Assembly: GCF_028368995.1 (NCBI RefSeq)
Contig: NZ_JAQNDL010000005.1
Coordinates: 160,001-224,000 of the forward strand
Source of the DNA: Nannocystis bainbridge
GTDB taxonomy: Bacteria > Myxococcota_A > Polyangia > Nannocystales > Nannocystaceae
DNA: 64,000 bases
Direction of reading: 5' to 3'
Shown: positions 1,105 through 8,209 of the stretch, piece after piece
Layout of the letters: every line of letters starts with the position of its first letter
Position numbering within the stretch: position 1 is the first letter of the stretch
Made by a program: the position numbers and the translations under genes
The notes under the pieces: generated by a model
What the model was told of the DNA's origin: nothing
Seen by the model: only the letters and a program-made list of their open reading frames with translations
The model's database searches: none

Positions 1105-3484
<2,380 letters not shown>

Positions 3485-3891: not shown

Positions 3892-5094
3892 GTGCTAGCG
3901 TACACGAGTCACGTGCCGGATCTGACGAGCCGCACCGTCACAAGCTTGGCGAGCGTCGACGCCGCGTCATGGGACGCGCTCGCTCACGAGGGCTGCCCCT
4001 TTCTAAAGCACGGGTTCCTGCGGGCGCTCGAGCTGTCGGGCTCCGTCGGCGACGAGCCGGGTTGGCGGCCGATCTACGTGCTCGTCGAGCAACACGGCGC
4101 CGCCGGCGCAGGGTCGGCGCCGCGCCTGGTCGGTGCGGCGCCCACGTACGTCAAGCGCCACAGCTACGGCGAGTTCATCTTCGACTGGGCGTGGGCGCGG
4201 GCGGCCGTGCAAGGCGGCCTGCGCTACTACCCCAAGCTGGTGATCGCCGCGCCGATGACCCCGGCCACCGGTCCCCGCATGCTGATCGCCCCCGACTGCG
4301 CGCGCGACGAGATCGTGCCTCGCCTGGTCGCCGGCGTGCGCGACGTCGCGGAGGCCGAGCGCTGTTGGTCGATCCACTGGCTGTTCACGACGGCGCGCGA
4401 GCACGACGAGCTGGCCGCGCTCGAGTTCATGCGCCGCGCCAGCTACCAGTACCACTGGCACAACGAGGGCTACGCCGACTTCGAGGCTTTCCTCGCCACC
4501 ATGACCTCGCGAAGGCGCAAGCAGCTCCGCAAGGAGCGCGCCCGGGCCCGCGAAGGCGTCGACGAGCTCGAGTGGGTCCGCGGCCCCGACCTCGGCCCCG
4601 AGGACCTGGTCGACATCGACCGCTACTACCGCAGCACCGTGCGCGCCTACGGCGGCCTCGACTACCTTCAGACAGGTTTCTTCGACCATGTCCACAAGGC
4701 CATGCCCGAGCAGATGCTGTGGGCCCGGGCCCGTCGCGGCGGCCGGACCATCGCCGGCACCCTCTACTTCGAGACCGACGCGGCGCTGTTCGGCCGCTAC
4801 TGGGGCTGCGACGAGAACGTCCCGTTCCTCCACTTCGAGGCCGCCTACTACGCGGCGATCGAGCGCTGCATCGCCCGCAAGACCCCGCGCTTCGAGGCCG
4901 GAGCGCAGGGCGAGCACAAGCTGCTGCGAGGCTTCGCGCCGGCGCGCACGTACAGCAGCCACTGGTTCCGCCACCCGGGCCTGGCCTCGGCCGTCGGCCG
5001 CTTCCTCGCCGAGGAGTCGGTCGCCGCGCACGAACAGATGCGCGAGCTGGAAGAGTACCTGCCCTTCCGCAGCGAAGAGCCCGAGCCCGAGTGA
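3892..5094 (+). CDS. GNAT/FemAB-like protein (DUF482 family); start may be GTG 3913
   Basis: HSYGEFIFDWAWA, YYPKL, GRYWG, LHFEAAYY, FEAGAQGEHKLLRGF motifs. Confidence 0.88.
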   Translation: MLAYTSHVPDLTSRTVTSLASVDAASWDALAHEGCPFLKHGFLRALELSGSVGDEPGWRPIYVLVEQHGAAGAGSAPRLVGAAPTYVKRHSYGEFIFDWAWARAAVQGGLRYYPKLVIAAPMTPATGPRMLIAPDCARDEIVPRLVAGVRDVAEAERCWSIHWLFTTAREHDELAALEFMRRASYQYHWHNEGYADFEAFLATMTSRRRKQLRKERARAREGVDELEWVRGPDLGPEDLVDIDRYYRSTVRAYGGLDYLQTGFFDHVHKAMPEQMLWARARRGGRTIAGTLYFETDAALFGRYWGCDENVPFLHFEAAYYAAIERCIARKTPRFEAGAQGEHKLLRGFAPARTYSSHWFRHPGLASAVGRFLAEESVAAHEQMRELEEYLPFRSEEPEPE

Positions 5095-5188
5095 CCCGCG
5101 AGCACGAGTGACCACCGAGCCCGAGCCCGAGTGACCCGCGGCGCGCGCCGAACAAGTCACTCGCCGGCGCGCGCCGAACGAGTCACTC
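5077..5188. repeat. Local direct repeats in convergent gap
   Basis: GAGCCCGAGCCCGAGTGACCCGCG at 5077-5100 and 5117-5140; GGCGCGCGCCGAAC(A/G)AGTCACTC twice after it. Confidence 0.6.
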
Positions 5189-5239
5189 ACTCCCGGCGAG
5201 CGACCCGGCGGCTCTTCAGCCCTCGCGTCCTCTCGCCGC

Positions 5240-5951
5240 TTACTCGTGCTCGCGCGACGCCGCGTTCGGATCGAGGTCCTCGAGAAAGCCCCGCGCGAAC
5301 CGGCGGTACGTCATTCGCGTGTCGCGCCGGTGGTCGACCACGACATCGCCCTGGACCTGGATCGTCCGGATCTTGTCGCCGCGCATGCCGCTGCCGGCCT
5401 GGGCCTTGCGTTCCGCGCAGCGACCCGCGCGCTCGGCCTCGCGGCGCTCCGCCGCCAGCCGCGCGCGCAACAGCTCGAGCGCCGTCTCGCGGTTGATGCT
5501 CTGGCTGCGACCGCCGTCGACGCGCACGTGGTGACCGCTCGGCTTGTGGCGCAGGTGCACCGCCGTCGAGGTCTTGTTGCGGTGCTGTCCGCCTTTGCCG
5601 CTGCCGCGGCAGAAATCCTCCTCGAGGTCCTCCGGACGGATCTCCACCGCCATCGCCGCCGCCGGCTCGAGCACCACCACCGTCACCGTGCTCGAGTGGA
5701 CGCGGCCGCGCTTCTCGGTCGGCGGCACCCGCTGCCAGCGATGACCGCCCGCCTCGTCCGCGAACCACCGCCGCGCCGCGCCGCCGGTCGCCTTGAAGCA
5801 CAGGAACCCCGGGCGCGCGTCGATCACCTCGAGGTCAAAGGCGCTCCCGCACGGCCAGCTTCTGGTACACCGCGAACTGCTCGTGCACGAGCAACTTGGC
5901 GTCGTCGCCGCCCTCGGCGGCCCGGATTTCGATGATGAGCGTGGTCTTCAT
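5240..5951 (-). CDS. RF1-like peptide chain release factor homologue lacking domain 1, expressed via +1 programmed frameshift (join 5951..5838, 5836..5240; about 236 aa)
   Basis: ORF1 MKTTLIIEIRAAEGGDDAKLL matches RF 'LEVRAGTGGDEA'; ORF2 has GGHRWQRVPPTEKRGRVHSSTVTV, GSGKGGQHRNKTSTAV, GSGMRGDKIRT; junction CTT TGA C. Confidence 0.88.
5834..5848 (-). promoter_or_regulatory. prfB-type +1 ribosomal frameshift cassette
   Basis: Minus strand GGGAG(5848-5844)-CGC-CTT-TGA-C: internal SD 3 nt before the shift codon, as in RF2 genes. Confidence 0.85.
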
Positions 5952-5956
5952 GGCTG

Positions 5957-6054
5957 CCTGTCCGGCCGCGCCGTCGCAAACGCGAAGCGCCACCCGGGCC
6001 GGCGCGGCCTCGATCCGCGAAGATCGGCTGCACCCGGATGGCGCGAAGGACAGG
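5957..6054 (-). promoter_or_regulatory. 5' leader hairpin sequestering the RBS of the release-factor homologue
   Basis: mRNA CCUGUCC (6054-6048) pairs with GGACAGG (5963-5957, RBS region); inner 12-bp stem GCGCCAUCCGGG/CCCGGGUGGCGC. Confidence 0.6.
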
Positions 6055-6058
6055 ACGC

Positions 6059-6133
6059 TCAACCGCGACCGACGAGCACGCCGCCGCGCACCTGGAGGGC
6101 GCGGACGGAGCGCAGGCGGATCGCGGCGCGCAT
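6059..6133 (-). CDS. Putative 24-aa leader peptide MRAAIRLRSVRALQVRGGVLVGRG
   Basis: ATG 6133 to TGA 6061-6059, ends 4 nt before the anti-RBS strand; GC3-rich codons. Confidence 0.45.
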   Translation of the reverse strand: MRAAIRLRSVRALQVRGGVLVGRG

Positions 6134-6177
6134 GACGGGGGGACAATACTCGCGGCCCGGCGGCCAGGCAAGCCGCC

Positions 6178-7746
6178 TCAGCCCGGATCGATCGGCGCGC
6201 ACTTGAACTCGACCTCGATCTCGGCCTCCTTGTCGTTCTGGACCGCGACGCAAGTCTCGGGGCACAGCACCACCTTGCCGTCGTCGAGGTAGAACGAGCC
6301 CGGTCCGCACCCGTCCGCGGCCGGCACCTGCTTGAACACCTCGGCCTCCATCGCTTCCATCGGCGTGAACTTGACCACCACCGAGTCCTCGTCGAGCTCC
6401 TTGCCCTCCGGCGGCGGCGGGATGGCGAAGTCGCACGCGATGGTCGCGTCGGCGATCACCCCGCCGGCCAGCGCCTGGAACAGCGCGTCGTAGGTGTTCG
6501 TGTCGCACAGCGGGAAGCGCAGCGCCCCCGTCGCCACCGACAGGCTCTGGTGACCGATCCCGCCGTTGACCCCGCTCGGGCATTTGGTCGTCACGATCGG
6601 GTCCTCCGCCGAATACGGGTCATCCGCCGGATCGTTGAACGACAGCCCGACGATGCTGTAATAGCTGTAGTTGCGGGTCTCGGGCGTCGGCCCGAAGTGC
6701 AGCGGCGACAGCTCGCGCAGCTTCGCGTCGAACTTCTCGGCCGCGTTGGCCCCGCCGGCGATCGTGTTGTTGTCGTTGTAGTGGTCGTTGCCGTGCGAGC
6801 AGACCACGCGGTCGTCCGACACCTCGACCATGATCTTGAACGCCTCCGGGCGCAGCCACGCCTGCCAGCCCTTCGGCGCGAACTTGAAGAGGTCCTGCTG
6901 GGCCCCGTTGAACGTGTCGAGCATGCGGCACCACGAGTCGGTGCTGTCGATCTCCACGCTGTAATGATAGAACTTGCCCGGGTTGTTGATCGGCTGGCTC
7001 GGCGGATTGGTGCAGCCGCCCTTGGGGATCCCCGACAGCGGCGCCTCGATGCACACCTGCGTCGACGAGTACTTGCCGTAGCGCGAGATGAGGATGACGC
7101 GGTAATCGAGCCCGCTCGCCGCCAAGATCTCGGCGAAGTTGTCGTTGATGTTGTCCTGCACCCCTTTGATCTCGGCCGCCATGCTGCCCGAGTTGTCGAT
7201 CACGACGATGATGTCGACCGGGCGCGGCACCAGCACCGGCACCGCCGACTGGGTCCCGCACGCCGACGGCATCACCTGACACTGCGCGGAGCAGCCGCTC
7301 TCCGGCCCGTTGAGCCAGCCGAAGTCGCACTCCTCGCCCGGGCCCGGCATGCCGTCGCCGCACACCTCGAGCACGCAGCCCACGCCGCAGCCGATGCCGA
7401 TGCCGTTGTGATCGCCCGCGTCGCACGCCTCGCCCGGGTCGACGTTGCCGTCGCCGCAGAACGGCGCCGCCGGCTCCCCCGAGCTCGTGCTGCCCGTCTC
7501 GCCCCCGCTCGTGCTCGCGTCGCCGGTGGACGCGCTGTCCGAGCCGCTGCCCGCGGACGTCGTCCCCGTCCCGGCCGACTGCGACGATTCCATGTCCGTC
7601 GTCGTCGGCAGCGGCGGCGGCGATTGAGTGGCCTCGGTCGTCACGCCGAAGCCGCTCTCGCTCGCCGAAACCTCGGCGCGGTCGCCGTTGCACCCGGCGA
7701 GCAGCGCGACCGTCGTCCCCACTTCGAACATTCTACGCATTCGCAT
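6178..7746 (-). CDS. Exported lipoprotein with Myxococcus Cys-rich repeats and vWA domain
   Basis: Lipobox LLAGC, Ser/Thr/Gly linker, CGDG..EECD repeats, MIDAS DIIVVIDNSGSM; start uncertain (7746 or 7731). Confidence 0.85.
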   Translation of the reverse strand: MRMRRMFEVGTTVALLAGCNGDRAEVSASESGFGVTTEATQSPPPLPTTTDMESSQSAGTGTTSAGSGSDSASTGDASTSGGETGSTSSGEPAAPFCGDGNVDPGEACDAGDHNGIGIGCGVGCVLEVCGDGMPGPGEECDFGWLNGPESGCSAQCQVMPSACGTQSAVPVLVPRPVDIIVVIDNSGSMAAEIKGVQDNINDNFAEILAASGLDYRVILISRYGKYSSTQVCIEAPLSGIPKGGCTNPPSQPINNPGKFYHYSVEIDSTDSWCRMLDTFNGAQQDLFKFAPKGWQAWLRPEAFKIMVEVSDDRVVCSHGNDHYNDNNTIAGGANAAEKFDAKLRELSPLHFGPTPETRNYSYYSIVGLSFNDPADDPYSAEDPIVTTKCPSGVNGGIGHQSLSVATGALRFPLCDTNTYDALFQALAGGVIADATIACDFAIPPPPEGKELDEDSVVVKFTPMEAMEAEVFKQVPAADGCGPGSFYLDDGKVVLCPETCVAVQNDKEAEIEVEFKCAPIDPG

Positions 7747-8209
7747 ACGAGCGCACTCTCCCGCTGTCGCCGCGAACATCCCGTTCGTCGGCGCGGCCAG
7801 TCGCGCGGACAATCCGCGATCAGAAGGTGGGTCGAGGTCAGCCCGTGCGCCATCAAGAACCCGTCAGCATCGACGCGCGTGACGCTCTCGACGGTCGTCG
7901 ACGAACCCTCGCCGTGACGCGGACGCACCGTGTTCCGCGGCCGAACGCGGCGCACGGTCGAGGCGCACGACCGACCCGCCGCTGTGACCGTGACCACCCG
8001 AGATCGAAGGCCCGGCCGGCATCAACGCGATCTTGACGACATGACCGATCGGACATGCCCGCGAAGACATTCTCGTTCACGGCGATGGCCGCGCCGAAGT
8101 CACTCGCGGCGGTCGGGCCGCCCGGGTGCGCACCGGTAACCTCGCGCCGCGCGGAGCTTCATGGCCACCCGCTGGTCCGACCTGCGGATCGCCGCATAAC
8201 CACCCGGCG

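Follow-up and report, generated by a model that had tools for sequence, protein, structure and literature searches.

The stretch of Nannocystis bainbridge DNA analysed here (contig NZ_JAQNDL010000005.1, positions 160,001 to 224,000; 64,000 nucleotides, hereafter the window) carries a recoded release factor gene on its minus strand, at 5240..5951. The gene product is an RF1-type class I release factor without domain 1, as established by profiles, Protein Data Bank (PDB) sequences, fold and tree, and its full length of 236 amino acids (aa; protein P0003) is reached after a +1 change of reading frame behind codon 38. At the shift site, purifying selection changes from frame 0 to the +1 frame, and the gene is a member of a widespread, stand-alone family of short RF1-like proteins that has its place beside canonical RF1 in the trees and in which the recoded form is common. 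Judged from the sequences, the shift appears to be programmed and not an error. We consider it rather probable that the gene supplies a stand-alone RF1-type factor comprising domains 2-4, made via the +1 shift, which acts as an accessory or back-up terminator with a level tied to termination capacity. An initial annotation of the window, which did not give the strand, had described the frameshift and the missing domain; its interpretation is partly supported by the results below.

The frameshift site and its conservation

The first open reading frame (ORF1) begins with an ATG at 5949..5951, comprises 38 sense codons in frame 0 (5838..5951, translation MKTTLIIEIRAAEGGDDAKLLVHEQFAVYQKLAVRERL) and is closed by a TGA at 5837-5835. 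According to the profile, the family alignment A1 and an AlphaFold2 (AF2) model, ORF1 encodes the first strand and helix of release factor domain 2, with residues E8, E13, G14 and G15 that are invariant in 33 family members. At its end are found an internal Shine-Dalgarno (SD)-like sequence GGGAG (5844..5848; locally read as cGGGAG), a 3-nt spacer CGC encoding Arg37 (5841..5843), the codon CTT of Leu38 (5838..5840), which is the putative slippery P-site codon, and the in-frame TGA (5835..5837), the predicted A-site codon at the shift, with C as the next base at 5834. The +1 frame is open from GAC at 5836-5834 over 198 codons to the gene's own stop, TAA, at 5242-5240 (5240..5242). This second frame (ORF2, 5243..5836) encodes residues 39-236, that is, the remainder of domain 2, domain 3 with the GGQ motif, and domain 4. 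Specifically, a PPT tripeptide (5717..5725), inside ...GGHRWQRVPPTEKRGRVHSST..., occupies the PxT position of RF1 and aligns to RVQRVPVTESGGRIHTST of Thermotoga maritima RF1, while the GGQ motif for peptidyl-tRNA hydrolysis lies at 5585..5593, and alignment A1 shows no variation at its G120, G121 and Q122. Reading frames and profiles thus confirm the initial description of a 38-codon ORF ending in GGGAG-CGC-CTT-TGA-C, whose +1 frame continues into a PPT- and GGQ-containing release factor.

To describe the site among relatives, we used 112 loci (the window, L006-L036 and L043-L122), drawn from 33 genome loci fetched with P0003 and 80 metagenome loci from a scan with the family alignment; similarity to the query governed their selection, and the proportions therefore do not stand for the family at large. 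A +1 shift is needed in 69 loci, 19 carry an in-frame stop, 12 are continuous, one (L006) needs a -1/+2 shift, and 11 are left unclassified by the motif rules; visual inspection finds an in-frame TGA in two of these, L030 and L110. Conservation of the CTT-stop site in homologues, on which the initial annotation had made its proposal depend, is extensive among the loci that need the shift. In 68 of these 69, CTT occupies the P site (the exception, L083, has CCT TGA); 66 have the site 31 codons past the E of the EIRAAEGG motif, 61 have C directly behind the stop, and 54 carry an SD-like motif. The start codon is found 1-10 codons 5′ of the same E in 68/69 shifted relatives, and the sequence 5′ of it is without conservation. 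Continuous homologues, which the initial annotation would have read as evidence against the shift, form the minority of 12/112 given above, and none occurs among the Nannocystaceae genomes in which the gene was detected. As a side observation, eight metagenome loci (L053, L054, L075, L095, L096, L104, L111 and L114) have CTT-TGA or CTT-TAG at the usual codon and no SD-like motif (e.g. ctccaccgtCTTTGA).

Mean information per codon position, calculated over 64 non-redundant shift sites, locates the switch of frame. Upstream of the site the three positions of frame 0 score 0.87/1.12/0.49, and downstream those of the +1 frame score 0.83/1.19/0.28; on either side the third codon positions are the least conserved. 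C-T-T-T is invariant in the 64 sites, including the synonymous third base of the leucine codon, and the third codon positions of the consensus CGGAGG at -12..-7 are kept better than average. In addition, CTT accounts for 1.3% of leucine codons in a set of about 4,000 long ORFs taken from the genome. Because CTT and its codon position are conserved in relatives, the frame under selection switches at the site, and CTT is rare among leucine codons, the shift is most simply taken as a programmed +1 frameshift and not as an error.

The same change from frame 0 to +1, at the identical codon, is seen in 16 genome loci (L007-L017, L019-L022 and L024) that share 54-92% protein identity; 12 of them read CTT TGA and four CTT TAG, preceded by a GGAG-type motif. 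They come from Nannocystis species, from metagenome-assembled genomes (MAGs) of Nannocystaceae and Myxococcales, and from two MAGs labelled Gemmatimonadota and Alphaproteobacteria. Within Nannocystaceae the gene occurs in 26 of 73 genomes, with matches that start at query residue 30-40 (at residue 71 at one contig end). A phylum-wide survey of 251 genomes with profile A1, in which canonical RF1 scores equally high, gave no tally of family members; among the matches listed, further partial ones beginning at residue 26-39 are present in G183, G291 and G311.

Public protein records bear the mark of the shift as well. Of 189 short family proteins in the database, 91 are full length and 98 begin near or past the junction. 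Among the 37 that reach at least 4 residues upstream of the junction, 35 read F[DESR] there, as follows from reading CTT-TGA or CTT-TAG in the +1 frame. Furthermore, two soil-metagenome contigs (X1 record 2 and X2 record 12), which derive from a single study, possibly the window's own source, cover the shift site without a gap; a third, X3, does not cover it.

In both strands of the 11-Mb genome, the cassette pattern SD-N3-CTTT(GA|AG)C occurs three times: in prfB, in the present gene, and at the natural stop of one ORF. The last site (G000:C4:711626, GGGAG-GTC-CTT-TGA-C) ends an ORF of 515 codons, and we rejected it as a frameshift site, as the +1 frame past the stop is not coding-like, with a G+C content at third codon positions (GC3) of 0.53. 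TAA, the final stop of the gene, accounts for 4.5% and UGA for 83% of stops in this genome; among recoded relatives whose end lies on the contig, 38 of 64 end in TAA, far more than G+C predicts.

A short RF1-like family and its recoding variants

The two halves of the gene match the RF1 profile NF001859 collinearly, ORF1 at positions 105-137 and ORF2 at 172-321, and the joined 236-aa protein matches positions 105-319 of 347 with 193 bits. The ranking of profiles for the joined protein is RF1 (NF001859, 193 bits), prfB (112), prfH (70) and arfB (43). In PDB sequences the best matches are RF1 of Thermotoga (4e-39) and of Thermus (3e-36), with RF2 chains following from 2e-20. The AF2 model of the joined protein, built on 33 family members, has a mean predicted local distance difference test score (pLDDT) of 93.3, reaching 96-98 across the first 40 residues. 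It resembles ribosome-bound RF1 chains with a structural similarity score (TMq) of 0.86-0.91, compared with about 0.54 for free closed RF1 crystals and 0.61 for PrfH on a damaged ribosome (9mor_A). In the model, the shift site falls between a helix (16-35) and a strand (39-46), and Leu38 aligns with the Trp of RF1 in ...GW|N.... In addition, G14, Q73, P76-P77-T78 and H85 align, in alignment A1 and with PDB RF1, with the positions of RF1 stop-reading residues, which we take to have the roles assigned to them in RF1-ribosome structures. The initial claim of an RF1-like class I factor without domain 1 therefore holds by profile, PDB sequence, fold and tree alike.

The gene shares with RF1 (prfA) the loop at the PxT position, GGQ and the switch-loop region, and RF1 gives its top profile, PDB and fold matches. 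It differs in lacking domain 1, in belonging to a separate clade, and in occurring in a genome that carries a normal prfA too. Membership of canonical RF1 was rejected on account of the absent domain 1 and of scores under the curated NCBIfam cut-offs (193 bits against 400 for NF001859, and 175.5 against 423.25 for TIGR00019). With PrfH it shares the character of a class I release factor homologue without domain 1. PrfH membership was likewise rejected: with TIGR03072 the protein scores 70.2 bits, under the cut-off of 166.65, it keeps the RF1 reading loop, and no rtcB adjoins the gene. No RtcB match was found on the window's contig (C5), nor among the neighbours scanned in the window or at 16 other loci. 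The initial argument that the gene is not prfH and that rtcB is absent thus stands for this contig, with the addition that an rtcB-prfH-like pair is present elsewhere in the genome. ArfB membership was rejected in turn, as only residues 101-136 match, with 42.6 bits against a cut-off of 100, and domains 2 and 4 are present.

The family is unnamed and is annotated as 'peptide chain release factor-like protein'. Its hallmarks in alignment A1 are a length of about 220-236 aa, the start EIRAAEGGxDAK, GGHRWQRVPPTEKRGRVHTST, GxGGQHRNK and GSGMRGDKxRT, and all are found in the present protein. The reading loop is RF1-like throughout (QRVPPT...H[TS]ST, from alignment A1 and the PDB alignment), with a third tripeptide position that varies among T, N and S. 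In a FastTree phylogeny of 237 rows, the short proteins form a starred clade (96), apart from 26 full-length RF1 sequences. An IQ-TREE phylogeny of 50 rows puts 38 short rows on one side of a branch with a support of 92 in the Shimodaira-Hasegawa-like approximate likelihood ratio test (SH-aLRT) and 10 RF1 sequences on the other (88), while the RF2 and the PrfH-like protein of this genome fall outside both the short clade and RF1 (94). The gene of the window falls in a clade of 76 rows: 59 are C-terminal-only proteins, 16 are frameshifted genes verified on DNA, and a single continuous member (P0024) reads L-S at the junction, as would the product of a TAG-type shift. In the remainder of the tree, recoded forms are interspersed with continuous ones, a pattern compatible with one origin and many losses or with repeated gains.

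Of the 69 shifted loci, 44 have TGA as the shift-site stop, 23 have TAG and 2 have TAA, and closely related lineages alternate between TGA and TAG (L015 versus L014, L019, L020 and L022). Across these loci the stop shows no covariation with the tripeptide (PPT occurs with TGA in 28, TAG in 15 and TAA in 2; PPN with TGA in 8 and TAG in 5), nor with locus G+C (median 0.61 for TGA and 0.605 for TAG). Three loci (L033, L036 and L121) have the +1 shift at three other codons. Another part of the family has an in-frame TGA instead of the shift, for example in Jiella, Kiloniella, a Rhodospirillales MAG and a gammaproteobacterial MAG. In L025-L027 this TGA aligns with the Trp of RF1, and in 16 metagenome loci (e.g. 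L109, L112 and L118-L120) it lies 30-41 codons past the motif. Two in-frame stops are present in L072, L084 and L101.

The family extends to huge phages. The 485-kb uncultured phage LR745208.1 has a short RF1-like gene (L129, 62874-64716) with a +1 shift at the window's codon (RRGL* / GGVFDLAII), and the phage records LR745206, LR756504 and LR756502 contain short RF1-like genes with in-frame stops. The LR745208.1 gene has an altered reading loop (…HRVQRTSNGRIHSST…) and an altered GGQ context (GCGGQGVN). Unlike these phage genes, the gene in the window is chromosomal, lies in a housekeeping neighbourhood and belongs to an organism with the standard code. Release factors of giant viruses are of the eukaryotic/archaeal type. 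Recoded release factor genes of Mimivirus and Megavirus are described in the accessible part of PMC3521657.

The closest known parallel to the site is the prfB cassette, which lies near codon 26 in domain 1 of RF2 and whose UGA is specific to RF2, providing autoregulation. The prfB of this genome has GGAGG-CAT-CTT-TGA-C after codon 32, in domain 1, with a spacing identical to that in the present gene. Both are class I release factor genes with an internal SD-like sequence, a 3-nt spacer, CUU, a stop and C. They differ in that the product here is RF1-type without domain 1 and in that the site follows codon 38 and lies within domain 2, where the Trp of RF1 aligns; an RF2-style +1 frameshift with its cassette inside domain 2, as initially proposed, is therefore what the gene contains. 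They also differ in the stop, which in the short family is TGA, TAG or TAA and is not specific to the encoded factor, the window pairing an RF1-type product with UGA. Thus, the variety of stops means that the autoregulatory logic of prfB is not directly transferable. In the accessible text of PMC12421855, prfB sites are 98.6% TGA with no TAG among 8,164 motifs, no programmed frameshift is found in prfA, and frameshifted and continuous forms of prfB are intermixed in the tree, as they are in the short RF1-like family. A reviewer's remark in the accessible text of PMC1586002 likewise describes the RF1 family as being without such a frameshift mechanism. Supplements and subscription journals aside, no domain-1-less RF1-like gene with a frameshift was found in the literature as far as its accessible text goes, nor in the accessible parts of PMC6514570, PMC12421855, PMC3711429, PMC12829566, PMC5009743, PMC1586002 and the bioRxiv preprints 2025.10.02.679949 and 2021.08.26.457843.

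Proposed expression through the shift and competing explanations

The mechanism of the prfB frameshift is established: CUU slips to UUU, an SD sequence stimulates the slip, and the shift competes with release. By the same steps, the mRNA of the present gene would be read in frame 0 for 38 codons until CUU occupies the P site and UGA-C the A site; the internal GGGAG, 3 nt upstream, would pair with the anti-SD of 16S rRNA and promote the slip. In some ribosomes, the peptidyl-tRNA-Leu would re-pair on UUU and translation would continue in the +1 frame to give the 236-aa factor, while the other ribosomes would stop there and set free a peptide of 38 aa. Since a release factor would compete with the shift at this stop, the yield of the factor would go up when termination is slow, and the competitor here would be RF2, the shift-site stop being UGA. 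By analogy with prfB, the shift is thus expected to be ribosomal and efficient and to respond to RF2, with expression gated by slow termination. The product, in view of its RF1-type reading loop, would presumably release peptides at UAA and UAG. Since TGA, TAG and TAA are mixed in the family, we suggest that the selected feature is a stop read by a single factor, i.e. a weak stop, and not one particular sensor.

Several observations weigh against a back-up terminator whose level follows termination capacity. The mixed stops complicate both regulatory readings of the initial annotation: with TAG at 23/69 sites, TAA at 2/69 and no tripeptide covariation, the family as a whole cannot follow a purely RF2-specific cross-regulation. 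The benefit of an RF1-type back-up while UGA termination fails is not obvious in a genome in which UGA is the prevailing stop. No SD-like motif is recognisable in 15 of the 69 shifted loci. The genome also carries prfA, prfB with its own frameshift, prfC, arfB and the rtcB-prfH-like pair, and no gap is filled by the present gene. Pfam searches on 47 flanking ORFs of 16 other loci revealed no common partner and no RtcB, and thereby no functional hint. The one clear RNA run (X20) contains a single 33-nt piece at the gene, which weighs in neither direction. Finally, L006 (N. pusilla Na p29), alone among the close relatives, has two 1-nt homopolymer deletions at locus positions 3090-3120, AA to A and TTT to TT, the latter at the shift site; these deletions restore no single frame and look like assembly errors or decay.

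An alternative is true autoregulation, in which the short factor, being omnipotent or of broadened specificity, reads its own shift-site stop and so limits its own synthesis as RF2 does. The occurrence of three stops at one site and the switching between TGA and TAG among close lineages are simplest to explain by one factor that reads all of them, the third tripeptide position is variable, and prfB provides the precedent. However, RF1 does not read UGA, and the reading loop is RF1-like throughout the family. The lack of covariation between tripeptide and stop, together with the rarity of TAA at the site, which an omnipotent factor would read equally, also argues against autoregulation, and we regard it as unlikely.

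The shift might instead work at a fixed ratio, with no sensing, and provide a constant low output of the factor, possibly together with a functional 38-aa peptide. Tolerance of any of the three stops and of SD-less versions would agree with a fixed ratio, and the gate is evidently dispensable, because continuous relatives exist (12/112 loci and 91/189 short database proteins). Yet stop-dependent recoding has recurred near the same part of the gene, both as the +1 shifts of L033, L036 and L121 and as the in-frame stops of 19 loci, and a weak promoter or ribosome binding site would be a cheaper way to a low level. Moreover, C follows the stop in 61/69 loci and TAA is nearly absent, as would suit selection favouring a stop at which termination is poor. 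We therefore consider a fixed ratio decidedly improbable.

Public annotations call the downstream ORF only (183-196 aa, e.g. the 196-aa RefSeq protein P0004), as if ORF2 were the whole product, translated from an internal GTG or ATG, with ORF1 an unrelated upstream ORF or leader. Against this, ORF1 encodes the conserved strand and helix of domain 2, modelled with a pLDDT of 96-98 over residues 1-40, is under purifying selection in frame 0, and ends 31 codons past the motif in 66/69 loci; in addition, continuous relatives carry the ORF1 segment fused, making translation of ORF2 alone very hard to sustain. A pseudogene, a sequencing or assembly indel, or transcriptional slippage is equally remote: the homopolymer deletions of L006 at and near the site would fit such an origin, but 68 other loci, assembled independently, and two short-read metagenome contigs have the extra T too, purifying selection acts on both frames, and known transcriptional slippage tracts are far longer than the run of three T found here.

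The preferred explanation, an accessory factor made through the shift, bears on the broader view of such circuits. With its frameshift, prfB is the textbook example of a translation factor gauging its own activity, and the texts consulted treat the device as RF2-specific. In the present family, an RF1-type paralogue is apparently controlled by this cassette in numerous lineages, TAG serving as the stop beside TGA, and certain relatives have an in-frame TGA instead. In public annotation these proteins lack their first 38 residues or are split. The gate would carry a built-in hint at the function of the family, namely that its product is needed when termination is slow, and the TGA, TAG and TAA variants offer a natural set for relating stop identity and release factor levels to frameshift efficiency. 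More tentatively, and with considerable doubt, the short family may represent a second, independently evolved circuit of termination homeostasis that is common to bacteria and huge phages. Its members would be general back-up terminators, perhaps with broadened stop specificity, whose synthesis is gated by failed internal termination; the gate itself would be interchangeable, as a +1 shift at CUU-UGA, CUU-UAG or CUU-UAA or as read-through of an in-frame UGA, and, near one and the same region of the gene, it would have emerged or relocated repeatedly.

Genomic setting

The RF1-like gene is the fifth GGQ-family protein gene of this genome and replaces no missing one. The PrfH-like gene mentioned above lies directly downstream of an RtcB gene (G000:C1:2904668-2906346) and scores 160.4 bits against the cut-off of 166.65; RtcB matches are present at four places in the genome. 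On the chromosome, the RF1-like gene is located between a FemAB-like gene and a gene for a secreted protein, near clpS-clpA and with a prolyl oligopeptidase gene nearby. This arrangement (ClpA, ClpS, FemAB-like, 544-aa secreted protein, hemerythrin and prolyl oligopeptidase) is shared only by L006-L010, in five Nannocystis genomes. A scan of 5000-6300 for promoter and terminator consensus sequences returned zero and zero.

Upstream of the release factor gene, at 6178-7812 on the minus strand, lies the gene for the 544-aa protein, which has a Ser/Thr/Gly-rich N-terminal part and many Cys residues. This protein has no Pfam match at an E-value of 0.001, and its gene adjoins the release factor gene in the five Nannocystis genomes.

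The 146-nt gap between the convergent FemAB-like gene, which ends at 5094, and the release factor gene, which ends at 5240, belongs to a repeat-rich region (5077-5254). A 24-nt unit that takes in the ...GAGCCCGAGTGA end of the FemAB gene itself occurs there in three copies, and CGGCGCGCGCCGAAC[A/G]AGTCACTC in two. Of five inverted pairs in the region, one joins 5097-5119 with the last codons of the release factor gene at 5232-5254. The soil-metagenome contig X3 omits 35 nt of this region, at 5218-5254.

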